NCBI GenBank assembly: GCA_028282585.1
Contig: JANQHR010000069.1
Span: forward strand, 1-10,914
Source of the DNA: Bacteroidales bacterium
GTDB taxonomy: Bacteria > Bacteroidota > Bacteroidia > Bacteroidales > UBA12077
Direction of reading: 5' to 3'
Length of the DNA stretch: 10,914 nucleotides
In this document: positions 1-10,914 of the stretch, one piece after another
How the letters are laid out: each line of letters opens with the position of its first letter
How positions within the stretch are numbered: the stretch's first letter is position 1
Made by a program: the position numbers and the translations under genes
Notes under the pieces: model-generated
Told to the model about the DNA's origin: nothing
Database searches by the model: none
The model's input: the letters and a program-made list of their open reading frames with translations, nothing else

Positions 1-2703
1 AGCACATAAATATTTGTCTCCTTTTTTATCTTCTCTTGATATTACTGAAGCGGTTTCGATATTTGGGTAACTTAAAATACAACTCTCAATTTCTCCCAAT
101 TCAATCCGAAAACCTCTAATTTTTACCTGGTTATCTAAACGCCCTAAAAATTCAATATTACCATCTGGTAACCAACGTGCCAAATCTCCGGTCTTATACA
201 ATAATTCTCCTTCTTTATAAGGATTAATAATAAATTTATCTCTTGTTAATTCCGGTTTATTTAAATAACCCCGTGCTAAACCATCGCCCCCAACAAGTAA
301 TTCTCCAACAATACCTATGGGTTGTAATTGCATATTGTTAAAAATATAAGCTGTAGAATTGCTTATGGGTTTACCTATAGGAATGTTATGGTTATATTCT
401 TTTTCTATTTTAAAGGTGGTTGAAAATGTTGTATTTTCTGTTGGACCATAACCATTTATTATGACTAATTGATTGTTCCGGTTTCTGATTCTTGAAATAT
501 GTGTACTAGATAATACGTCTCCTCCTACCAATAAATATGATAGATTATCAAAAATCGATTCATTTGTGTCTACTAATTGATTGAATAAATTTGATGTTAA
601 CCATAAGGTGGTAATATTATTCTTAGTTATGTAATTTTGTAATAAATCGCCATTTAAGATCACATGGTCTTTTGCAATAAATAAAGTTCCCCCGTTTAGT
701 AAAGCAATCCAAATCTCAAATGTTGTTGCATCGAATACTAATGCGCCGGTCATCAATACTTTGTGATTGAAATTCGTTGGAATATAATTCGTATTCTTTA
801 CTAAACGGACAACACTCTTATGGTCAATCCCAACGCCTTTAGGTTCTCCGGTAGAACCAGATGTAAACATAACATAAGCTAAATCACTAGTATTCCTGCC
901 TAAAGATTTAAAATCATTACTAGAATTGTTAACTTCATCACTATCAATTATAACTGTTGTCCCTTTAAATGAATAATCAAATTGAGTATCTCTGCTTGTC
1001 AATAATATTGAAATTCTACATTCCGATATTATTTTTCCAATTCTTTCTGAAGGATACTTGTGGTCAATTGGTACGTAAGTACAACCTGATTTTATGATTC
1101 CAAGGATACCAACAATCATTTCCGAAGAACGGCCTGTTATAAAACCAATTAATTGATTCTCTTTTACTCCCTTTTGAACTAAACAATTAGCAACTTTGTT
1201 TGCTTTGGAATTTAATTCACTATAAGTATAGGACGAATTATCATCAATTAATGCTAAATAACCAGGTATTTGCTCAACCTGCTCCTCAAAAAGTTCATGA
1301 ATGAGTTTATCTTTAGGGTAAGATTGTTTTGTATCATTAAAATCATGTAACAACTGTTGTTTCTCTGACTCTGAAAGAATATTTAAGCTTTGGACATTTG
1401 AGCCGATGTGGTAAATTATTGATTCTAATATGCTTAAAAGATGTTTGCTAATGCCTTCAACTTGATACTCTGCTAAATTTGTAGTAGAATAATTAAAATG
1501 TATTTCAATTTCTTCACTTACTAAAGCAGTGATAGTTAATTTATAATTGGTAGTTTCCTGAACCGAGAATGATTTTACTTTTAAATTTTCATTACCTTTA
1601 ATATATTTTCTTTCGATAGGATAATTTTCAATTACAAATATTGACTCCAGTAATTCATCTTCTTTGTAACCTGCGTAACTTAAAATTTTTTGTAAAGGTA
1701 CATTTTCGTATATTGTTCTATCTCTTAATTGTATTGCATTGTTTTTAATATCACTAATTAAACTTCCTGTTTGAGAAAATTTCAATCGAATTGGAATCGT
1801 ATTTATAAACAAACCTACGATTTCTTCAATCCCATTTAACTTAATATTTCTTCCTGATACTGTAGTCGCAAATAGAACATCTGTCTTATTGGAATATTTA
1901 GTTAATAAGATTCCCCAAGCATTATATAAAATATCAGCTCTCGTTAATCCGTATGATTTACATATATTATCAATTTGTTTAACTTTATTTGAGCTAATTA
2001 ATAACTTAACACTCTCTCCGCTATCCTCATCAGATAAAGAATTTTTATTGACATGAAAACAATTTCTTCTTTCATAATTATTTAAATAATCTTTCCAAAA
2101 CTGTTTACTTTTTAAATCTATCTCCTTATTTATATTAATAAAATATTTAAATGGTGTTTTTTGGATATTTATTACTTCTTCTCCATTTACCAACTTATTA
2201 TAGTTTGATAAAAACTCTTTAAGAATAATAGCATTACTCCATCCGTCATATATAATATGATGATTGCTTATTAACAAATAATATTTATTAGAATCAACTT
2301 TGCATAAAGTTAAACGGAAAGGTACATCCCTTAGATCAAACCTTTCAGAGTAATCTTTACATTGAATATTATGGAATTCTGTTACAGAACCTCGACCTTC
2401 TTTTTTTGTTAAATCAAAATAGCGAAAATCAACATCATGCTTTTTTAAGATTATTTGAATTGGCTTATTTAATTTTTCCCATCTAAATACTGTTCTTAAC
2501 ATTTCATTAGATTCAATAACCTTATACCAGGCTTTCCTGAAATAATCAACATCTATATTTCCTTGAATTTCTAATGATAATTGAACAAAATATAAATTAC
2601 TGAATATATCTTTCAAATAATGAAATAAGATTCCTTCTTGTAAAGATGTCAAACTAATAATATTATCAACATTAGCTTTATCCAACTTATAACTCTTATT
2701 CAT
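1..2703 (-). CDS. Nonribosomal peptide synthetase 2, truncated by the window edge: N-terminal COM acceptor, DCL-type condensation domain, adenylation domain (predicted Val)
   Basis: ATG at 2703-2701; the segments I translated by hand stay in one frame down to position 1 (901 codons). N-terminus MNKSYKLDKANVDNIISLTSLQEGILFHY; C-domain core SNHHIIYDGWS (~2236-2268); A-domain motifs LAYVMFTSGSTGEPKG (~835-882), FDATTFEIW, NGYGPTENTTFS, YKTGDLARW, GRLDNQVKIRGFRIELGEIE. Missing from the ORF track, presumably because its stop codon lies outside the window. Confidence 0.95.
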   Translation of the reverse strand, partial: MNKSYKLDKANVDNIISLTSLQEGILFHYLKDIFSNLYFVQLSLEIQGNIDVDYFRKAWYKVIESNEMLRTVFRWEKLNKPIQIILKKHDVDFRYFDLTKKEGRGSVTEFHNIQCKDYSERFDLRDVPFRLTLCKVDSNKYYLLISNHHIIYDGWSNAIILKEFLSNYNKLVNGEEVINIQKTPFKYFININKEIDLKSKQFWKDYLNNYERRNCFHVNKNSLSDEDSGESVKLLISSNKVKQIDNICKSYGLTRADILYNAWGILLTKYSNKTDVLFATTVSGRNIKLNGIEEIVGLFINTIPIRLKFSQTGSLISDIKNNAIQLRDRTIYENVPLQKILSYAGYKEDELLESIFVIENYPIERKYIKGNENLKVKSFSVQETTNYKLTITALVSEEIEIHFNYSTTNLAEYQVEGISKHLLSILESIIYHIGSNVQSLNILSESEKQQLLHDFNDTKQSYPKDKLIHELFEEQVEQIPGYLALIDDNSSYTYSELNSKANKVANCLVQKGVKENQLIGFITGRSSEMIVGILGIIKSGCTYVPIDHKYPSERIGKIISECRISILLTSRDTQFDYSFKGTTVIIDSDEVNNSSNDFKSLGRNTSDLAYVMFTSGSTGEPKGVGIDHKSVVRLVKNTNYIPTNFNHKVLMTGALVFDATTFEIWIALLNGGTLFIAKDHVILNGDLLQNYITKNNITTLWLTSNLFNQLVDTNESIFDNLSYLLVGGDVLSSTHISRIRNRNNQLVIINGYGPTENTTFSTTFKIEKEYNHNIPIGKPISNSTAYIFNNMQLQPIGIVGELLVGGDGLARGYLNKPELTRDKFIINPYKEGELLYKTGDLARWLPDGNIEFLGRLDNQVKIRGFRIELGEIESCILSYPNIETASVISREDKKGDKYLCA

Positions 2704-2726: not shown

Positions 2727-2777
2727 ACAAGCATTAAAACTTCCGTTATAATATTTATAAGAATAATTTTAGCTTGT
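2727..2777 (-). other. Long imperfect intergenic stem-loop between NRPS-1 and NRPS-2
   Basis: Minus strand ACAAGC-TAAAA-TTATTC-TTATAA-ATA-TTATAA-CGGAAG-TTTTA-AT-GCTTGT pairs end to end with small bulges; no U-tract follows. Confidence 0.55.
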
Positions 2778-5700
2778 TAAAAAAGGCTTTCTAATTCTTC
2801 TTCACTTAGTTCAACCGTATCAAAATCTGAAGGCGTAAAATGAATCTCAGTATTATTGGACAGATACAGAAAAATCCCATTTATATTTCTTTCAATTCCC
2901 TCTCTTATGACAGTTAATTCATGATAATCTAGCATACTTTTATTACAAATAATATCGATAATTAACTTTCCATCTATTATAAAACTATTCACTTCTAGAT
3001 TAGTAGTAAATTCATTTTTATTCGAGATATCTTCTCCGGTATAATCATTTATAAATGAGAATAGGTCATTTGACAATTCCTTTCCAAACTGTCCCATGTA
3101 GTTAAATCTAACTTCGGATCTTCTCTTAGTTAATTTATTAAATTTTTTATTGATATATTTTAATACTCCATACCCTAAACCGTTTTTAGGGATGTTACGT
3201 AACTGCTCTTTTACAAGCTTTAATATATCATTAATATTATTACTATTTAAAATAAATTCTACAGGATAAATTGATGTAAACCACCCTATAGTTCTTGACA
3301 CATCTATACCCTCAATTATCCGACCGTAACTTTCCGTGTCAATTATAAATGTATCTTTATTGTAATGTTCTCTTAATGTTTTTAACAAAGAACTTATTAA
3401 CAAAATTTGAATATCCGTACCATACGATATATTGGCATCTTTTAGTAAATAATCTGTCTTTTCTTTATCAATTATAATTTGAGACCTAGAACCCTCTCCT
3501 CTAAAAGGTGTTTTATTTTCTTTATAGTCAAATAGCTTAAGTTCCTTTTCTTCAATTCTGTTCCAAAAATTGGACTGATCCATTAATTCGTTAGAACTTG
3601 CATATTTATTAATTGCATTCTGCCAATCAATAAGATTTGCGGTTTTTTGAGGAAGATAAAAGGTTCTTTTCTTTTCTAAATTCAAATATATGGTGTACAA
3701 GTCTTCTAATAGTATTCTCCACGACAATCCATCTATTACCAAATGATGAGAAGTTATCAATAATCTATCGGCTTTGCCATTCTGTCTTATAATAGCAGCT
3801 TTTATTAATAAAGTATTCGTGATATCAAATTTAGATTTAATTTTTATTCCTAAGCTTTCAATTTCATCCTTATGATTAATAAAATATTCATCAACTTCAA
3901 ATGGCTGATTAAGATATTCATTATTGAAATACATTAATCTGCTTTTCGGATTGAAATTCATTCTTAAACCATCATGGTGCTCAATAATTTTATCAAATGT
4001 TTGTTCCAGAAGGTTTCTGTTTATATTCCTCTTAAATTCCAATAATAAGGATTGATTATAATAATTTTGATCTTTAAAATTCTGTTCAAAGAACCATTTT
4101 TCAATTACACTTAATTTTTTTTCTCCTGTAACAATTCCTTGATCATACTCTTCATTTGATTTTTTTACGCATTTACATATTTGTTCGATGGATTGATTTA
4201 CAAGAATTTCGTTTGCCAATAATGAATAACCTTTATTATATAAACGCGATGTAATTTGAACTGCTTTTATGGAATCTCCTCCTATCTGAAAAAAATTATC
4301 ATCAATTCCTATTTCATCAACATTAAGAACTTTCTGAAATATTTCCACCAGCAGTTTTTGAATTTCATTTTCTGCTGCGCGAATCTCTTTTCCTTTTTTT
4401 AATAAATTTAATGACAATAGTGCTTCTTTATCTACTTTACCGTTACGAGTTAAAGGAATATTATCAATATTGAAAAAAGCATTAGGAATCATGTAAGATG
4501 GCAAACGGTTTTGAATATGATTTCGCAAAGCATTCTCACAGATATCAGTTTTTGAAGTATAGTATGCAAATAATTTATATATACCATCAATATTGGATTG
4601 TATAACTACAGTTGATTTAATATCCTCAAATTCCAGAATACATTTTTCAATTTCACCTAATTCGATTCGATAACCATTTATTTTAACTTGATGATCTGAT
4701 CTTCCAAGAAACTCTATTTGCCCGCTTTCATTAAATCTTGCCAAATCTCCAGTTTTATACAACTTTTTTTCTGATAGCTCAGAAACCGTTATAAACTTAT
4801 CATATGTTAAACTTTTTTTACTATGATAACCTCTGCCTACACCTAAACCTCCTACAAAGATCTCTCCAGTTATTCCTCTTGGAACAGGATTATTATATTT
4901 ATCCAATAAATAAATATGAACATTATCTGCTGGTTTCCCAATTGGAATAGATTTATTATATTTTTCTTTATGTTTAAATTTATAAATCATACAACCAACT
5001 GTAGTTTCTGTTGGTCCATATTCATTAAATATCTCGATCCTGTTATTAAACATACAAGAAATTTCATTTGCCAATTCAGATGCCAAATCTTCTCCTCCAA
5101 CAATGAATCTCTTAAGATTTTTTATATTTTCAGGATTAATTTTATGATCATCCCTTATCAGCTTTAAGTGCGAAGGTGTAAGTTTTATTACTCCTACTCT
5201 ATCTTCTAATAGTACCTGCTCAATTAATAAATTTCGATCATTTTCTTGATAAATAAAAATAGAATTACCGGTTACTAGAGGTAGAAATAGGGAAGTAACG
5301 GTTAAATCAAAAGCCACTGAAGTAAATAATGGAAAATGAACTTTTTCATTTTTAACATATTGTTTTTGAGCCCACCAAATATAATTCAATAAATTTCCAT
5401 GCTCAATCATTACTCCTTTTGGTTGACCAGAAGTACCTGATGTATAAATCATGTAAGCTAAATTGTTTGACTTAATATTTATTTTATATTCAGGTAAATT
5501 CAAATCATACTTATTTAAATCATCAACACATATTATTTTATCTTTTGAGAATTCATTTAAAATATTCTTGTTAGATTCTTGAGTCGCTTTTGTAGTAAGT
5601 ATTAAAATGGGGTTACAATCATCTAATATGTACTTTTTCCTTGATTCCGGGTAATTTATATCAACCGGAACATATGCCCCCCCTGCTTTAAGAATTGCTA

Positions 5701-8700
5701 AAACCGATACTACAAATTCAATAGATTTATCCATTAAAATCGCTACAAACGCCTCATTTTTGACACCCTCATGTACCAATATTTTTGCTAATTCATTAGC
5801 TTCATTATTTAGTTCCATATATGATAATTGAACATCTCCACAAATAAGAGCTTCTGCATCTGGATTATCTAAAGATCGATTTTCAAATAATTCATGAATA
5901 AGTACGTCGGGATTATCTGAGCCTGTTTTATTATATTCTGAAATTAATCCAATCTTTTTCTTATCGGAAATAATATCAATATCCTTAATATTAGAACCTG
6001 GATTATCAATTATACTTTTAATAATTTGTATAAAATATTCAGAATATTCTTTAATAGTGCCTTCTTTGAATAAAGCAGTAGAATATTCAAATGTAAAATC
6101 TATATTCTCATTCTCAAATAATTCTAAACTAATATCAAACTTTGAAGTTTTCTGATCTACCGGAAAATAAGATATCTCGAATTCGTTATTAGAAAATGTA
6201 GGAAAAGTCATATTTTGATATACAAACATAGTATCAAATAATGAATTATTCTCATCTGAAGATTTATGATTAAGAAGGTTTAATAACTCATTATATGGCA
6301 AATCTTTATTGTTCATTGACTGGACAAATTCCTTATTAATATCATTTAAATATTGAATAAACCGGGTATTTCCTTTCGGGTAAAATCTTATTGGTAAATT
6401 ATTTACAAACATTCCCACAGTTTCAATAAATTTACCATGATTTCGACCTGCTTCAGCAATACCTATTATCATATCCTCTTGTCCAGTAATTTTATGCATT
6501 AACAATGAATAGCATGCAAAAAGAATTACAGATTTTGAAACTTCTGTTTTCCGAGAAAGGTCTTCAATAGATCGATTAAGGTTTGAACCAAGACTACCAT
6601 AAAATCTGGCTCCATCATAATTGCTTGTATTTACTTTCGGAAAATCATACGGTAAGTCTAATTTAGGAACATCATCACTAAACTTATTCAACCAATAATT
6701 TTTAATCTCTTGATTAATTTTGCTATTCAAAAATTTCTCTTCCCAAAGCACAAAATCTGCATACTCATATTCTATTTTTTCTGTTTTTCTATTTTGTACC
6801 AGATTTAAGTAATCATGAATTATTTTAATAAGAGAACTACCATCTGCAACAATATGGTGAATATCAAATAACAATACAGTTACATTATTAATAAATGCAT
6901 ATTTCAAACGTATTAATGGCAAAATTTCTAAATTAAAAGGTGTTACATAATTTAATACCTGTTTTTCAAACCTCTCGTCGCTTCTTAACTTCATTTCTTC
7001 AAATGAAATAACAGATTCATTATGAACATATTGATATGGTTTACCATCCTCAAAATGAAATGTTGTTTTAAAAATATCATATGCATTAATTAATTCGATT
7101 AAAGCGTTCTTTAATCTATTAATTTCAACTTCACCCTTGAGAATAAAACCTTGGGGAAGATTATAAGCAAGCGATAGTTTATTCAATTGATAAAAATAAA
7201 ATAACCTATTTTGTGCATGAGATAATCTAAATCTTTTATTTTCATTACGTTCAATTTTATACGATTCTATGTTCTTCTTACTTTGAGCAAGTTTGGAAAG
7301 TCCTTTTATTGTTTTTATTGTATATATATCTTCCAATGATATATCCATATTCAACTCCCCTCGAAGTTCTGCAACCAACTGACTAGCTTTTAAAGAGTTT
7401 CCTCCAATAGCAAAAAAGTCATCTTCAAGGTTTATATCTTTTCTACCTAATATCCTCTGCCAGATTTGTAAAACATTTTTTTCAGAATTACTTAATGATT
7501 CTATAACTCTTTCCTTTCTTTCTTTCTTAATTAACACGTTCAATCTAGATATAATATCAACATAATGACCATTTTGGTAATTTTGTAAAAGTTTATACCG
7601 TTGAATTTTTCCACTAGTTGTTTTTGGAATTCCTTTTACAGGAATAACATGATCTAAATGTATTCCAACCTTCTTATTAATAACTTCAATACATGACTTT
7701 CTAATACTGACAAAACTTTCAAGCATTCCTCTATACAAAATAAATGCAATTATCTCGTCTCTTGATAAACTAGAATTATAATTTCCGACGATTACAACTT
7801 TCCCTAATTCAACTTCTTTGACCTGTTCTGCAATTCTTTCCAGATCATGAGAATAGTAATTTTCTCCATTCACAAATATGATATCTTTCTCTCTTCCGAC
7901 AATATATAGCTCACCATACGTATCCTTAAACCCCAGATCTCCTGTATCCACCCAACCATCATTTGTGACTAATCTTAAAGTATCCTTTTGATTATTATAA
8001 TAGCCCGAAGTAACATTTTTACCTTTTATTTGGATTCTTCCCACATAACCATTCTCCAAAGCTTTATCTTCTCTATTAACAAGGCGGATATAAGTATTTT
8101 TAATTTGTTTTCCAACACTTACAAATTGAATACTTGAATTATTTTGATCTGTATGGATAATTTTTTCACCAATATTCAAGTGATTTCTATCTACATGAAC
8201 CGAAAATATATTTTTCTCTGGTTTAGAAAAAGATACAGCAAGACTCGCTTCCGCTAAACCGTATACCGGAAATATAGTATTATCTTTTAATCCATAGCTT
8301 TTAAAGTAATTGTTAAACTTTTGACATATTTCTTTAGATATTGGTTCAGCTCCATTAACAATTATTCGCAAGCTTGATAAATCAATGTTGTGATTTTTTT
8401 CTGGCCTGAAATGTTTTAATAAATATTGGTAGCCAAAATTAGGAGAAGAAGTAAATGTAATTTTATAATCGGCAATTTTCCTAAGCCAAAGTGAAGGATT
8501 TCGCATAAATAGCTCAGTGGGCATTATAAAGTGATTCCAACCTTTATAAAGGGGTGTTAGATGAAAGCCTATAAGCCCCATATCATGTGTCAAAGGCATC
8601 CAGCTATAAAACTTATCTCCCTCCTGAGGACTATAAATTCCATGATGTATTGACTCTATATTAGTATATAAGTTCTGATGAGTTAAAATAACTCCTTTTG

Positions 8701-9214
8701 GATTTCCTGTCGATCCAGATGAAAATTGTATATATGCTATATCATTTTCAGTAATCTCCTTTATTTCTCCTTGTACATTACTGTCGGAATCATCTGTTAA
8801 AATAAGTCTATCTCTTATCAAGTTTTTAAGTTCTTGATCTAATTTAACATTCTTAGAATAATTCTCGTTAGTGGTTATTAGATAAGGAGAATATAAAACT
8901 TTGATTATATTTTTTAATTTTTCCTTTAAATCTTCGGTTAAAGCATAGTTAACAGGAACAGGAATAATTCTTCCCAATATACAAGCCCAAAATGTCTCAA
9001 TAAATATATTAGGCTCTTGTAATTGAAATACCAGTTCGTCCCCCTCATTAATACCAAACTGTTGTAATCTTCCCAAGGTAAAAATAGCCCTCTTATTCAA
9101 TTCTTCATAAGAAACAAATGAATCATTACCAATACTATTGATATACGTAATGCCTTTATTAGAACAATTACCTAATCTCAAGAAAATATTCTGTAAGTTA
9201 TTTTGAGAAGTCAT
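2777..9214 (-). CDS. Lipopeptide-initiating NRPS, ~2145 aa: FAAL (fatty acyl-AMP ligase)-ACP-C-A(Asn)-PCP-E-COM donor
   Basis: FAAL motifs IQFSSGSTGNPKG, SWMPLTHDMGLI, YGLAEAS, TGDLGF, PKTTSGKIQR; carrier GGNSL; C core HHIVADG; A motifs YTSGTSGQPKG, FDLTVTS, NEYGPTETTVG, NGKVDK; PCP GGDSI; E motifs HHLVIDGLSWRILLEDL, SRTIGWFTSIYP, GLGYGVL, FNYMGQF; C-terminal TPSDF plus acidic tail. The start is placed at Met16 of the tracked ORF (ATG 9214-9212, MTSQNN). This removes the overlap with upxY and matches where MycA-type FAALs begin; the tracked start at 9259 is less likely. Confidence 0.95.
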   Translation of the reverse strand: MTSQNNLQNIFLRLGNCSNKGITYINSIGNDSFVSYEELNKRAIFTLGRLQQFGINEGDELVFQLQEPNIFIETFWACILGRIIPVPVNYALTEDLKEKLKNIIKVLYSPYLITTNENYSKNVKLDQELKNLIRDRLILTDDSDSNVQGEIKEITENDIAYIQFSSGSTGNPKGVILTHQNLYTNIESIHHGIYSPQEGDKFYSWMPLTHDMGLIGFHLTPLYKGWNHFIMPTELFMRNPSLWLRKIADYKITFTSSPNFGYQYLLKHFRPEKNHNIDLSSLRIIVNGAEPISKEICQKFNNYFKSYGLKDNTIFPVYGLAEASLAVSFSKPEKNIFSVHVDRNHLNIGEKIIHTDQNNSSIQFVSVGKQIKNTYIRLVNREDKALENGYVGRIQIKGKNVTSGYYNNQKDTLRLVTNDGWVDTGDLGFKDTYGELYIVGREKDIIFVNGENYYSHDLERIAEQVKEVELGKVVIVGNYNSSLSRDEIIAFILYRGMLESFVSIRKSCIEVINKKVGIHLDHVIPVKGIPKTTSGKIQRYKLLQNYQNGHYVDIISRLNVLIKKERKERVIESLSNSEKNVLQIWQRILGRKDINLEDDFFAIGGNSLKASQLVAELRGELNMDISLEDIYTIKTIKGLSKLAQSKKNIESYKIERNENKRFRLSHAQNRLFYFYQLNKLSLAYNLPQGFILKGEVEINRLKNALIELINAYDIFKTTFHFEDGKPYQYVHNESVISFEEMKLRSDERFEKQVLNYVTPFNLEILPLIRLKYAFINNVTVLLFDIHHIVADGSSLIKIIHDYLNLVQNRKTEKIEYEYADFVLWEEKFLNSKINQEIKNYWLNKFSDDVPKLDLPYDFPKVNTSNYDGARFYGSLGSNLNRSIEDLSRKTEVSKSVILFACYSLLMHKITGQEDMIIGIAEAGRNHGKFIETVGMFVNNLPIRFYPKGNTRFIQYLNDINKEFVQSMNNKDLPYNELLNLLNHKSSDENNSLFDTMFVYQNMTFPTFSNNEFEISYFPVDQKTSKFDISLELFENENIDFTFEYSTALFKEGTIKEYSEYFIQIIKSIIDNPGSNIKDIDIISDKKKIGLISEYNKTGSDNPDVLIHELFENRSLDNPDAEALICGDVQLSYMELNNEANELAKILVHEGVKNEAFVAILMDKSIEFVVSVLAILKAGGAYVPVDINYPESRKKYILDDCNPILILTTKATQESNKNILNEFSKDKIICVDDLNKYDLNLPEYKINIKSNNLAYMIYTSGTSGQPKGVMIEHGNLLNYIWWAQKQYVKNEKVHFPLFTSVAFDLTVTSLFLPLVTGNSIFIYQENDRNLLIEQVLLEDRVGVIKLTPSHLKLIRDDHKINPENIKNLKRFIVGGEDLASELANEISCMFNNRIEIFNEYGPTETTVGCMIYKFKHKEKYNKSIPIGKPADNVHIYLLDKYNNPVPRGITGEIFVGGLGVGRGYHSKKSLTYDKFITVSELSEKKLYKTGDLARFNESGQIEFLGRSDHQVKINGYRIELGEIEKCILEFEDIKSTVVIQSNIDGIYKLFAYYTSKTDICENALRNHIQNRLPSYMIPNAFFNIDNIPLTRNGKVDKEALLSLNLLKKGKEIRAAENEIQKLLVEIFQKVLNVDEIGIDDNFFQIGGDSIKAVQITSRLYNKGYSLLANEILVNQSIEQICKCVKKSNEEYDQGIVTGEKKLSVIEKWFFEQNFKDQNYYNQSLLLEFKRNINRNLLEQTFDKIIEHHDGLRMNFNPKSRLMYFNNEYLNQPFEVDEYFINHKDEIESLGIKIKSKFDITNTLLIKAAIIRQNGKADRLLITSHHLVIDGLSWRILLEDLYTIYLNLEKKRTFYLPQKTANLIDWQNAINKYASSNELMDQSNFWNRIEEKELKLFDYKENKTPFRGEGSRSQIIIDKEKTDYLLKDANISYGTDIQILLISSLLKTLREHYNKDTFIIDTESYGRIIEGIDVSRTIGWFTSIYPVEFILNSNNINDILKLVKEQLRNIPKNGLGYGVLKYINKKFNKLTKRRSEVRFNYMGQFGKELSNDLFSFINDYTGEDISNKNEFTTNLEVNSFIIDGKLIIDIICNKSMLDYHELTVIREGIERNINGIFLYLSNNTEIHFTPSDFDTVELSEEELESLF
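2780..4140 (-). other. Epimerisation domain plus C-terminal COM donor; approximate bounds
   Basis: LSVIEKWFF, HHDGLRM, HHLVIDGLSW, ESYGR (variant of EGHGRE), SRTIGWFTSIYPV, VKEQLRNIP, FNYMGQF, TPSDFDTVELSEEELESLF. Confidence 0.88.
4165..4375 (-). other. Peptidyl carrier domain of the type preceding epimerisation domains; approximate bounds
   Basis: DDNFFQIGGDSIKAVQI; GGDSI (4271-4282 region) is typical of PCPs that serve E domains. Confidence 0.9.
4420..5900 (-). other. Adenylation domain of NRPS-1, Stachelhaus code DLTKIGEVGK (Asn); approximate bounds
   Basis: Code read by manual alignment to GrsA: FDLTVTS (D,L,T), VIKLTPS (K), FIVGGE (I,G), NEYGPTETTVG (E,V,G), NGK (K). DLTKIGEVGK is the established Asn code. 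Confidence 0.88.
5960..7225 (-). other. Condensation domain of NRPS-1 (couples the acyl chain to Asn); approximate bounds
   Basis: LSHAQNRLF...YNLP, HHIVADGSS (~6839-6859), VGMFVNNLPIR, SKFDISL, FEYSTALFKEGTI. Confidence 0.9.
7280..7490 (-). other. Acyl carrier (thiolation) domain of NRPS-1; approximate bounds
   Basis: IWQRILG...DDFFAIGGNSLKASQL with the phosphopantetheinylation Ser (~7394-7405). Confidence 0.9.
7570..9214 (-). other. FAAL domain of NRPS-1 (MycA/ItuA-like acyl-AMP ligase); approximate bounds
   Basis: FWACILGRIIPVPV, SWMPLTHDMGLIG, MPTELFMRNPSLW, SSPNFGY and GREKDIIFVNG closely resemble the mycosubtilin/iturin N-terminal ligase as I recall it. A FAAL-type insertion (HVDRNHLNIGEKIIH...) follows YGLAEAS. 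Confidence 0.85.
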
Positions 9215-9246
9215 TGACACTAGCCTTTTTACATAGCATAAAATAA

Positions 9247-9768
9247 CTATGAATAACACATTTTAACACTTTCTATATAGTTTGAAGGTACATTAATAAT
9301 TAATGATTGCTTTAATGAAACTATTTTAACTGCAAACCTTTGGCTTCCACGCTCTTCAAGTAAAACCCCCTCCAGTCCGCATAAAGGACCTTCGTTGATT
9401 AACACCTTAGTTCCTATTTTTAAATCATCACTAACTTCTACAGTAGACTTCTTACTTATAATATAGTTTATCTGATCTATTTCTTTTTGCTTTATAAAAA
9501 CAGGATCTTTACAAAATGTGACGCAACTAATAACCTTTGGTGTCTTTAGTATATCAAAGATTTTATTACGTTCAATATTCACAAAAATATAATTGGGAAA
9601 TAAAGGAACTTGTAAACGTTTCTTTCTGTCACTCCAGTTTTTAACTATCCAATGTAATGGCAAAAAAGTTTCATAACCTTCTCTTTGTAAGTACTTTTGC
9701 ACCTTTCTTTCAAATTTAGGATAAGTGTAAAAAACGTACCACTTCTTTGTAAAAAAAATAGAATCCAT
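9247..9768 (-). CDS. upxY: UpxY-family (NusG paralogue) transcription antiterminator, 173 aa
   Basis: NGN domain: KWYVFYTYPKFERKV...FLPL...WSDRKKRLQVPLFPNYIFV (the WSDRKK..PLF segment is characteristic of Bacteroidota UpxY-like proteins). KOW domain: GTKVLINEGPLCGLEG. First gene of the operon; 32 nt separate it from the likely NRPS start. Confidence 0.9.
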   Translation of the reverse strand: MDSIFFTKKWYVFYTYPKFERKVQKYLQREGYETFLPLHWIVKNWSDRKKRLQVPLFPNYIFVNIERNKIFDILKTPKVISCVTFCKDPVFIKQKEIDQINYIISKKSTVEVSDDLKIGTKVLINEGPLCGLEGVLLEERGSQRFAVKIVSLKQSLIINVPSNYIESVKMCYS

Positions 9769-10066
9769 AAGTTACTTTAATAAAATTAACCAGGTTAAAC
9801 TTTTTCTTCTTATAGCAATTTCCAGACATAGAAATCCCATTAGAGCTTTTATTAAAATCCCTTAAAGTATCATCTATACGTTCAAAAAACAGAAAGAGGG
9901 TCTATTGCTATGTAAGCTAATAACAATTCTCGAATTATATCAGTATTGGAGAAAAACCAAGTTAATAAAAGAAGAATTCAATTTGTAGGCTACACAGTCA
10001 ATAAATTAGAGTTATAGTTTTTGCTTATATTCTTAAACAAAACGCCTAATATTAATTTCAGGACAC

Positions 10067-10075
10067 AGCTTCGCT
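10067..10075 (-). promoter_or_regulatory. Candidate ops-like pause / antiterminator loading site (AGCGAAGCT)
   Basis: The minus (non-template) strand reads TTATA-AGCGAAGCT-GTGTCC: a GC-rich mini-hairpin (AGC-GAA-GCT) in an AT-rich leader ~300 nt upstream of upxY. It resembles the GCG...AGC core of E. coli ops (GGCGGTAGnnTG). Confidence 0.5.
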
Positions 10076-10127
10076 TATAAAACTCACAAAACTGGTTCAT
10101 TTTAATAAAGCAAATAAAGTTTATATA

Positions 10128-10157
10128 CGAAAATAAAAATTTTAATTTAAATTTCAA
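10128..10157 (-). promoter_or_regulatory. Putative Bacteroidota housekeeping-sigma promoter for the upxY-NRPS operon
   Basis: Minus strand: TTG (10157-10155), 19-nt spacer, TATTTTCG (10135-10128). One mismatch to the TTG-N19-TAnnTTTG (-33/-7) consensus; it would start transcription ~45 nt upstream of the ops-like site. Confidence 0.4.
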
Positions 10158-10174
10158 TGTTATCAAACTAAAAC

Positions 10175-10200
10175 TATAACTTTTTAACAAAAAAGTTATA
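10175..10200. repeat. Perfect 11-bp inverted repeat (TATAACTTTTT-AACA-AAAAAGTTATA); operator or hairpin
   Basis: Read directly: arms 10175-10185 and 10190-10200, 4-nt spacer. Confidence 0.7.
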
Positions 10201-10238
10201 TATCCATAACATTTATATAGCATGGTAAGTGCATAACA

Positions 10239-10246
10239 CAAACTTA
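10239..10246 (-). promoter_or_regulatory. Alternative -7 promoter box (TAAGTTTG)
   Basis: Exact TAnnTTTG match on the minus strand, but no TTG/TTTG at the expected -33 spacing. Confidence 0.25.
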
Positions 10247-10610
10247 AAATGTATTTTATAATACGTCTGTGATAAAGTAGTTAGTCTTATTTTAAATCCC
10301 TATTCAGAATATTTATTATTCTAATGAGTAAATTATCAACAAAAGTTGGTATTAAAAATTTAATCAAATTATCATATAAAATGTATTTAGCAAGCTATTT
10401 GGATACTTCATATGAAACATTTTCTAACATGTTGCTATCTTATATTCTTTATCTACATGAAATTGTTTAAAATATAGTCCTTACAACATTTCATTATCTC
10501 TTAACCAGATCGAGAAACTATTTAATGGACGCATAATGCTTTTAAAATAAATTTGATATAGTTCTGTTTAAGCGACCATAATTTAAATGTTATACTAAGA
10601 TAATTCAGAT

Positions 10611-10648
10611 ATAATAACATTCGCTTTACATTATAATATTCTTCGCTT
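10611..10648. repeat. Imperfect direct repeat, 22-bp period (ATAATAnnnTTCGCTT x2)
   Basis: ATAATAACATTCGCTT (10611-10626) and ATAATATTCTTCGCTT (10633-10648); 13/16 identical. Confidence 0.5.
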
Positions 10649-10869
10649 ATTGAAACACCACTAATGTATAATAATTTATAAAAAATTGATTGTAAAGTTC
10701 TTACAAATTAATTTCAATTCTTACAAGCTCCACTACAATCTCAAAACTCTAAAAAACAAAATTAATCACTTGATCTAATCTTTCTTTTTGATTCTAGCTA
10801 CCCATTTTTAGTACTTATGTGTTTATTTATAAAATATCTTTACTATTATTGTATAGATTTTAGAATAAA

Positions 10870-10914
10870 ATGAATTTTCAGGGAATAAATAAAAATAAAC
10901 AAGTTATGGATAAG
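10870..10914 (+). CDS. Possible N-terminus of a divergently transcribed gene (truncated by the window edge)
   Basis: The frame from ATG 10870 is open to the end (MNFQGINKNKQVMDK). The second ATG at 10906 follows an A-rich stretch (AAAAATAAACAAGTT) typical of Bacteroidota translation starts. Too short to identify. Confidence 0.3.
   Translation, partial: MNFQGINKNKQVMDK

Follow-up and report, generated by a model that had tools for sequence, protein, structure and literature searches.

Specialised NusG paralogues are known switches for long and costly operons. To our knowledge, switches of this kind have been shown for antibiotic gene clusters in only two cases, LoaP from Bacillota and TaA from Myxococcota. 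The natural-product clusters of Bacteroidota are mostly silent or belong to uncultured organisms. We analyzed a 10,914-bp stretch of DNA from the genome of an uncultured Bacteroidales bacterium (contig JANQHR010000069.1, hereafter the window), in which a NusG paralogue of the UpxY family, here called Y, is encoded directly ahead of nonribosomal peptide synthetase (NRPS) genes. The Y leader carries a 25-nt element that resembles the ops (operon polarity suppressor) sites of other specialised NusG paralogues. The arrangement, in which a UpxY-family factor dedicated to an NRPS/polyketide synthase (PKS) cluster has an ops-type signal of its own and no UpxZ, is real and well conserved, and we predict its function from sequence. 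With a UpxY-type factor and a recognisable ops signal placed ahead of NRPS/PKS genes, Bacteroidota would join the phyla in which NusG-type switching serves such clusters.

The two factors from antibiotic clusters resemble Y in role. LoaP from Bacillus velezensis is described as a NusG paralogue encoded beside, and dedicated to, very long secondary-metabolite operons, namely the PKS operons for difficidin and macrolactin (PMC12691694). Unlike Y, it comes from another phylum and falls into another family by hidden Markov model (HMM). LoaP uses an RNA hairpin with a UNCG tetraloop and acts on intrinsic terminators, whereas the Y locus has an ops-like DNA sequence and no terminators that we could see. 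TaA from Myxococcus xanthus is described as a NusG paralogue inside the gene cluster for the antibiotic myxovirescin (PMC7593976, PMC12691694). It belongs to a different phylum, and its likeness to Y rests on published descriptions rather than on sequence.

RfaH and the UpxY proteins resemble Y in construction. The NGN fold of Y superposes on that of Escherichia coli RfaH at about 2 Å, and the 12-nt ops signal of RfaH shares a GCG..AGC stem with the Y element; the RfaH hairpin in non-template DNA is given as GCGGTAGC in PMC11685472. Y could plausibly share the role of RfaH in long operons acquired by horizontal transfer and in opposing Rho, which is present. RfaH differs from Y in that its HMM scores Y below the cut-off and in that its gene stands apart from the several operons it serves. 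The C-terminal domain of RfaH is helical when free, whereas that of Y is modelled as beta strands at low confidence. The Bacteroides fragilis UpxY proteins (UpaY-UphY) share with Y the family NF033644 and a position as first gene of the operon that the factor should control. Their opsX sites combine a GCGNAGC core with an upstream part, and the GCGAAGC core at the Y locus is identical to that of the PSE ops site, CTGCGAAGCATA, as given in PMC11685472. Unlike these proteins, Y heads NRPS/PKS rather than capsule genes, its genome lacks UpxZ, and its leader is far longer (306 nt). There is also a single target site in the Y genome, compared with a hierarchy of eight in B. fragilis.

Divergent specialised NusG paralogues are reported for about half of Bacteroidota (PMC7593976), and UpxY is presented simply as a Bacteroidetes family in PMC12691694. 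Two B. fragilis UpxY proteins are listed without a UpxZ partner (PMC7593976), and UpxZ is thus not a strict requirement of the family. Our full-text literature search returned no paper linking a UpxY-family factor to an NRPS/PKS cluster, although the supplements of surveys may list such contexts.

Family, gene order and linkage of Y

The sequence-only reading of this DNA had placed Y in the UpxY lineage, and HMM classification confirmed this assignment. The UpxY model NF033644 matched Y at 142 bits (cut-off 100) over model positions 1-164 of 164. The models for RfaH (TIGR01955, 85.4 bits, cut-off 144.5), LoaP (NF033641, 68.4 bits, cut-off 125) and housekeeping NusG (TIGR00922, 43.7 bits, cut-off 135.7) all scored below their cut-offs, as did NF006534 (65 against 124). 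Residues 45-50 (WSDRKK) and 55-57 (PLF) vary little or not at all when 31 and 34 relatives are aligned. Y belongs to a close clade of 34 members, in which one protein is 97% identical to Y and 32 are 52-68% identical; beyond the clade, identity is at most 47%. The UpxY model was the best match for 34 of 34 members, and the clade alignment has a mean column identity of 68% with 18 invariant residues. By these profile comparisons, Y is a member of the UpxY family and not LoaP, RfaH or a housekeeping NusG.

The Pfam NusG NGN domain was found at residues 8-100 of Y (80 bits), and the Pfam KOW domain was not detected. An AlphaFold2 (AF2) model of Y is confident over the NGN domain, with a predicted local distance difference test (pLDDT) score of 80-97, and about 97 residues of this domain can be superposed on RfaH at 1.8-2.5 Å. 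For the C-terminal part, the model shows beta strands at pLDDT 45-67. When the clade profile was compared with sequences in the PDB, the best matches were 8f5g, a "NusG-RNA complex" (E 6e-15), and RfaH (2e-11).

The genome holds three NusG-type genes. One NusG-like gene, on contig C41, clusters with E. coli NusG on the tree (support 97, a starred branch). A second UpxY-family gene, on contig C91, heads an operon of Poly_export, a GNVR/AAA_31 Wzc-like kinase, sugar-nucleotide enzymes and NeuB. Because the C91 copy heads a polysaccharide operon, the organism has a classical capsule UpxY and, apart from that, Y. A search for UpxZ (PF06603) found no match anywhere in the 98%-complete genome, and its control was positive in B. 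thetaiotaomicron.

The sequence-only reading had also described a NusG paralogue with a WSDRKK..PLF motif 32 nt before a giant co-oriented NRPS gene, with no upxZ or sugar genes in between. We could confirm this layout, in which every gene of the window lies on the minus strand:

9247..9768, minus strand: UpxY-family NusG paralogue Y, 173 aa, TAG stop (open reading frame [ORF] list, NF033644, Pfam NGN)
9215..9246, minus strand: 32-nt spacer from Y to NRPS gene 1, with no room for upxZ (read from the sequence)
2777..9214, minus strand: NRPS gene 1, 2145 aa, from the first ATG at 9214
1..2703, minus strand: NRPS gene 2 (condensation-adenylation...), cut by the contig end (Pfam)
10064..10088, minus strand: ops-like element TGTGAGTTTTATAAGCGAAGCTGTG, GCGAAGC core at 10068-10074 (leader alignment)
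9769..10063, minus strand: leader from the ops-like element to the Y start codon, with no conserved ORF
10089..10914, minus strand: ORF-free upstream region, 22-29% GC, presumed promoter region

Read from its first GTG, NRPS gene 1 would span 2777..9259 and overlap the Y gene. The ATG at 9214 leaves exactly 32 nt after the TAG of Y, and the resulting length of 2145 aa agrees with the orthologues (2144-2147 aa). No ORF of at least 60 aa fits in the interval between Y and NRPS gene 1, which holds neither upxZ nor a sugar gene. Pfam found two AMP-binding, two PP-binding and two Condensation domains in NRPS gene 1, in the order AMP-binding (acyl-ligase-like), carrier, condensation, adenylation, carrier and a second condensation-family domain. 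A 73-nt spacer separates NRPS gene 1 from NRPS gene 2. The window is one entire contig (C126, 10,914 bp) of a 4.89-Mb genome (173 contigs, 31.9% GC, 98% complete), so the remainder of the NRPS cluster lies beyond its end. The 14 sequencing runs found to contain window positions 8000-10914 are all DNA, from coral, reef or marine metagenomes.

Y and the NRPS gene are inherited together. Five of the 37 genomes of the genus have an orthologue of Y at 60% identity or above: G000 (the genome of the window), G025, G006, G016 and G003. The same five, and no others of the 37, also have an orthologue of the N-terminus of NRPS gene 1 (first 600 residues, 62-98% identity), which in G025, G006, G016 and G003 stands beside Y. 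In keeping with the pairing noted in the sequence-only reading, the two genes adjoin on the same strand in 5 of 5 carriers, with a gap of 14-32 nt in four and of 1.3 kb in G016. Y is the first gene of the co-oriented array in the window genome, G025, G006 and G003. The carriers are kin and therefore do not amount to five independent observations. A metagenome locus, L134, has a leader element and a Y protein identical to those of G003 and was counted with that lineage. More distant UpxY-type matches, most of them about 32-34% identical, are counted in the total of 29 out of the other 36 genomes of the genus that have any, and in an order-wide sample of 401 genomes only three outside the genus reach even 40-41% identity to Y.

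On phylogenetic trees, which did not include LoaP or TaA (LoaP was compared by HMM only), Y lies inside the UpxY radiation of the Fibrobacteres-Chlorobi-Bacteroidetes (FCB) group. A FastTree of 278 rows joined the close clade and L134 in one group with support 94. Its neighbours were L009 (Prolixibacteraceae, with an AraC-type helix-turn-helix gene behind the factor), two genomes of the same order, L040 (PKS) and L100; L100 falls together with the Aquimarina factor, behind which a giant PKS is encoded. A quick IQ-TREE of 91 rows split off NusG (97, starred), placed E. coli RfaH on a long lone branch and joined the Y clade with L009 and L203 (97, starred). On this tree the NRPS/PKS label requires six changes, of which the starred branches force two. 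When the close clade, L027, L126 and L037 were tested as a single clade, an approximately unbiased (AU) test returned p = 0.042, for a quick tree and a group named after the tree had been seen. The sequence-only reading had proposed that a UpxY-lineage factor was recruited for a secondary-metabolite operon. The tree does not resolve its deep forks and so does not point to descent from a capsule factor, and the nearest neighbours are not capsule loci.

The ops-like leader element

The ops-like element is the only conserved block in an alignment of the five leaders, which otherwise could not be aligned. AT-rich noise dominated a k-mer comparison of the same leaders, from which the ops block alone stood out. 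The element was found in all five lineages checked. It lies 306 nt upstream of the Y start codon in G000, 309 nt in G025, 102 nt in G006 and 156 nt in G003. In G016 it is absent before Y and present in two copies downstream (L117:8238 and L117:15982; G016:C152), one between Y and NRPS gene 1 and the other past NRPS gene 1, before the next genes. Since these copies sit before NRPS genes and not before Y, the element stays with the cargo genes. This arrangement suggests that the G016 factor may act in trans at two entry points. The element is unique in the 4.9-Mb genome of the window, where the next-best match to a 22-mer has four mismatches and lacks the core.

The element fits GCGNAGC within the consensus YGCGNAGCR, with A and T as flanks here and not Y and R. 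Experiments described in PMC11685472 identify the B. fragilis ops sites, together with about 30 nt upstream, as sites of pausing and UpxY recruitment. We take the element of the Y leader to be an ops-type recruitment signal and infer that polymerase pauses there. The sequence-only reading had not seen this element, whose presence strengthens the idea that a UpxY-type factor could have been recruited to the cluster. A degenerate second copy, TTTCAATAAGCGAAGAAT, occurs at 10638-10655 on the minus strand, about 565 nt upstream of the intact element, with its core spoiled to GCGAAGA. This copy has decayed further in the 97%-identical G025 and thus looks like a relic.

The same signal recurs in the UpxY family. 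We sampled 160 other UpxY-family loci, half of them (80) taken from species genomes and half (80) from metagenomes; apart from L134, none exceeds 41% identity to Y. These loci were picked by likeness to Y and are not a neutral census. They span Bacteroidota, Ignavibacteria, Calditrichaceae, KSB1, Balneolales, Rhodothermales and Acidobacteria-type contigs. Among the 153 loci with at least 150 nt of upstream sequence, GCGNAGC occurs within 400 nt upstream of the start codon on the sense strand in 56, compared with 10 on the antisense strand. With L134 left out, 46 of 55 such leaders also have a box 13-14 nt farther upstream (TGTAAGTGAC, TGGGACT and variants). The resulting two-part consensus is cccTGtaanTgAcggGGCGAAGCTgTa, at a median of 87 nt from the start codon. 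By eye, the upstream box often pairs with an arm lying farther upstream (GTCAC/GTGAC, CTCAC/GTGAG or GTCCC/GGGAC), and in the clade of Y itself the arms read AAAAC(C)/G(A/G)GTTTT. A pause hairpin at the two-part element is possible.

The 1,146 bp 5' of Y have no credible ORF. The sole candidate for a leader gene, a TTG ORF at 9990-10241, was rejected because a 7-nt indel breaks its frame in the 97%-identical G025. In G006, G016 and G003, too, Y is preceded by about 1 kb without an ORF. No Rfam family matches the leader or its ops-like element. A search of the upstream region for Bacteroidota promoters gave one TAnnTTTG match (10239-10246), which has no TTTG partner at -33, and a sigma-70 scan was uninformative for Bacteroidota (84 sites versus 72 expected).

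Proposed mode of action and rival explanations

Our best reading, which we consider probable, is that Y is an ops-recruited processivity factor encoded in and dedicated to its own operon, functionally like LoaP and TaA and built like UpxY and RfaH. It would serve one operon, the NRPS cluster that it heads (NRPS-PKS in relatives). RNA polymerase would start in the AT-rich upstream region, transcribe the leader and pause at the ops-like element (10064-10088, minus strand). There, the NGN domain of Y would recognise both the GCGAAGC mini-hairpin exposed in the non-template strand and the TGTGAGT box upstream of it, and Y would displace housekeeping NusG from the polymerase. The modified complex would withstand pausing and Rho-dependent release across tens of kilobases of very long genes. 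Y and the NRPS genes would be co-transcribed, and distal expression would be affected. Because the Y gene is the first behind its own ops in the window genome, the circuit would reinforce itself. Rho is encoded in the genome (649 bits, cut-off 509) and the window has no terminator-like sites, so the likely benefit is suppression of pausing and of Rho-dependent polarity, as with RfaH and UpxY. Read-through of terminator hairpins, as described for LoaP in PMC12691694, is less likely. Y is the likely on-switch of the NRPS cluster, and expressing the factor with the 25-nt element kept in place offers a route to heterologous activation.

Several observations weigh against this model of an ops-recruited, operon-dedicated Y. 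The C-terminal domain of Y is modelled at low confidence. The element lies 306 nt from the start codon in the window, compared with the family median of 87 nt. A pause hairpin at the element is weak in G000 (-2.8 kcal/mol), and folding energies across the family are not better than those of shuffled sequences (median z -0.3, with 5 of 54 below -1.5). The capsule-type UpxY gene on C91 has no GCGNAGC in its short leader, and the signal is thus not universal in the UpxY family. Gene context covers 5 lineages of the 34-member clade. Finally, the 10.9-kb window contains 0 sites resembling intrinsic terminators, compared with 2.2 expected from shuffles, which leaves antitermination in the LoaP sense without a visible substrate.

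The C91 gene (G000:C91:54081-54575, minus strand) comes after metK and a hairpin, with a TATTTTTG box some 40 nt upstream of the start. This capsule-type UpxY may use a different recruitment signal.

We weighed other explanations against the proposed role of Y. The 25-nt element might be a promoter or the operator of another regulator rather than an ops site, in which case Y would be recruited in some other way or act generally. Its 5' half, TTGTGAG, looks like the tail of a Bacteroidota -7 box, the two copies in G016 precede separate gene groups as promoters would, and the G003 cluster contains a gene for an extracytoplasmic function (ECF) sigma factor. This explanation is nevertheless unlikely, because a two-part element with an invariant GCG-AGC core stands before UpxY-family genes (46 of 55) in phyla with quite different promoters and with strong strand specificity (56 versus 10). 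Its core is also that of ops sites reported as experimentally verified (PMC11685472), and no proper TAnnTTTG box overlaps it. About equally unlikely, in our view, is that Y regulates only itself or acts elsewhere, with the NRPS genes under their own promoter and the adjacency a product of shared horizontal transfer. The spacer of 32 nt without a terminator, the strict co-occurrence of the two genes and an adjacency kept at 60% protein identity all speak against it, as do the absence of any further copy of the element from the genome and its move to the NRPS side in G016, which control of the NRPS genes predicts. What such a scenario does account for is the 1.3 kb between Y and the NRPS gene in G016, and the patchy distribution (5 of 37) and the tmRNA gene beside the G006 cluster, which fit an island with unrelated passengers.

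The sequence-only reading had called Y a Bacteroidota counterpart of LoaP. The comparison stands for the role of the factor only; the signal resembles the DNA ops of UpxY and RfaH rather than an RNA hairpin. In a fully LoaP-like scheme, the KOW domain would bind a hairpin in the nascent leader RNA and the complex would read through intrinsic terminators in the cluster. Such a scheme can draw on the shared association with a secondary-metabolite cluster, on the best PDB sequence match of the clade profile (the NusG-RNA complex 8f5g, E 6e-15) and on the LoaP-like KOW charge reported for some B. fragilis UpxY classes (PMC11685472). We give it little credence, as the LoaP HMM scored 68 bits against a cut-off of 125, the 10.9 kb hold 0 terminator-like sites, and the conserved signal is a DNA-type GCGAAGC core and not a stable hairpin. 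Nothing specific favours a chance neighbour, that is, a degenerating NusG paralogue without present function. A frame that is intact in five lineages, the 68% mean column identity and 18 invariant residues of the clade, and the conserved leader element make this explanation very improbable.

A broader proposal, which we regard as possible and put forward only tentatively, is that Y and the ops-like element form a portable "processivity cassette" that moves with secondary-metabolite clusters of Bacteroidota. The hairpin box and GCGRAGCTGT would then be the common recruitment code of UpxY-type factors across the FCB group and Acidobacteriota and not something peculiar to Bacteroides. If this were true, sequence data would reveal which operons any such paralogue controls, and providing the factor that matches a silent NRPS/PKS cluster could activate it; G016 would be a natural example of action in trans. 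The family-wide ops consensus may have broader use than the single locus.

Genes carried behind the factor across the family

At least 1.5 kb of downstream sequence was available for 123 of the 160 sampled loci. NRPS/PKS genes are co-oriented behind the factor in 6 of these 123 (L027, L126, L037, L040, L134 and, weakly, L159). L027 and L126 each have a gene of 2077-2165 aa that resembles NRPS gene 1, and L040, from Aquimarina sp., has an ORF of at least 3238 aa. At the Puia and Mucilaginibacter loci, NRPS genes lie upstream of the factor gene on the opposite strand. A UpxY-family paralogue in another genome of the genus of Y (L100:1-2052; G028) has a GCGGAGC leader element 41 nt upstream and a beta-ketoacyl synthase gene behind it.

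For 101 loci, we sorted the genes immediately downstream of the factor into similarity groups and annotated a single representative of each. The majority were polysaccharide genes. The groups comprised Poly_export (12 loci), GDP-mannose dehydratase (10), a GH15 hydrolase (9), an unknown 161-aa protein followed by capsule genes (9), a sugar transferase (6), an exosortase (4), an AMP-binding/carrier protein of NRPS-like type (4), SLBB (3), a flippase (3) and Wzc (2). The sequence-only reading had suggested the factor as a marker for mining similar clusters. With NRPS/PKS genes behind 6 of 123 factors and mostly polysaccharide genes behind the rest, the marker does not serve alone and is useful only together with the neighbouring genes.

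The GH15/trehalase-like hydrolase, rather than a polysaccharide export gene, is first behind the factor at L016, L021, L023, L025, L026, L041, L045, L052 and L129. These nine loci come from eight named Cyclobacteriaceae or Cytophagales genomes and one metagenome contig. At a Chitinophaga locus (L011), a GT20 gene resembling trehalose-phosphate synthase comes first behind the factor. In a Balneolales metagenome-assembled genome (L014:6624-8951), a phage-tail-sheath-like protein is encoded behind a factor whose leader has a GCGGAGC element. Contractile injection systems may be another kind of cargo of the UpxY family.

Two relatives of the window extend the picture of what follows Y. The co-oriented array of G006 runs for about 37 kb and has three NRPS genes in total. 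Its first part encodes an unknown 599-aa protein, a thioredoxin-like protein, a MacB/FtsX permease and a 3149-aa NRPS. Further on come a B12/radical-SAM enzyme, a U32 peptidase, another NRPS, a KS-AT-KR-ACP PKS and an oxidoreductase. A full transfer-messenger RNA (tmRNA) gene (RF00023, 149 bits; L086:590-1009, G006:C1) lies about 480 nt upstream of Y, directly before this Y-NRPS-PKS cluster. The tmRNA gene is a classic insertion site of genomic islands. A second copy of the tmRNA 3' end was not found in the G006 genome, and the island borders are thus without a mark.

The G003 cluster has a single NRPS gene. It is followed by genes for a pyridoxal phosphate (PLP) enzyme, an ornithine-cyclodeaminase-family protein, a carbamoyltransferase-like protein, a hydroxyacyl-CoA dehydrogenase, the ECF sigma factor and a MacB/FtsX permease. 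The PLP enzyme and the ornithine-cyclodeaminase-family protein (L119:8128-10155) resemble the SbnA/SbnB-type pair for diaminopropionate synthesis, and the product of the cluster may contain an unusual diamino acid. Upstream of the Y leader in G003 (L119 at about 18400-18800, and L121; C34), the DNA reads by eye as a fragment of an IS3-type transposase.

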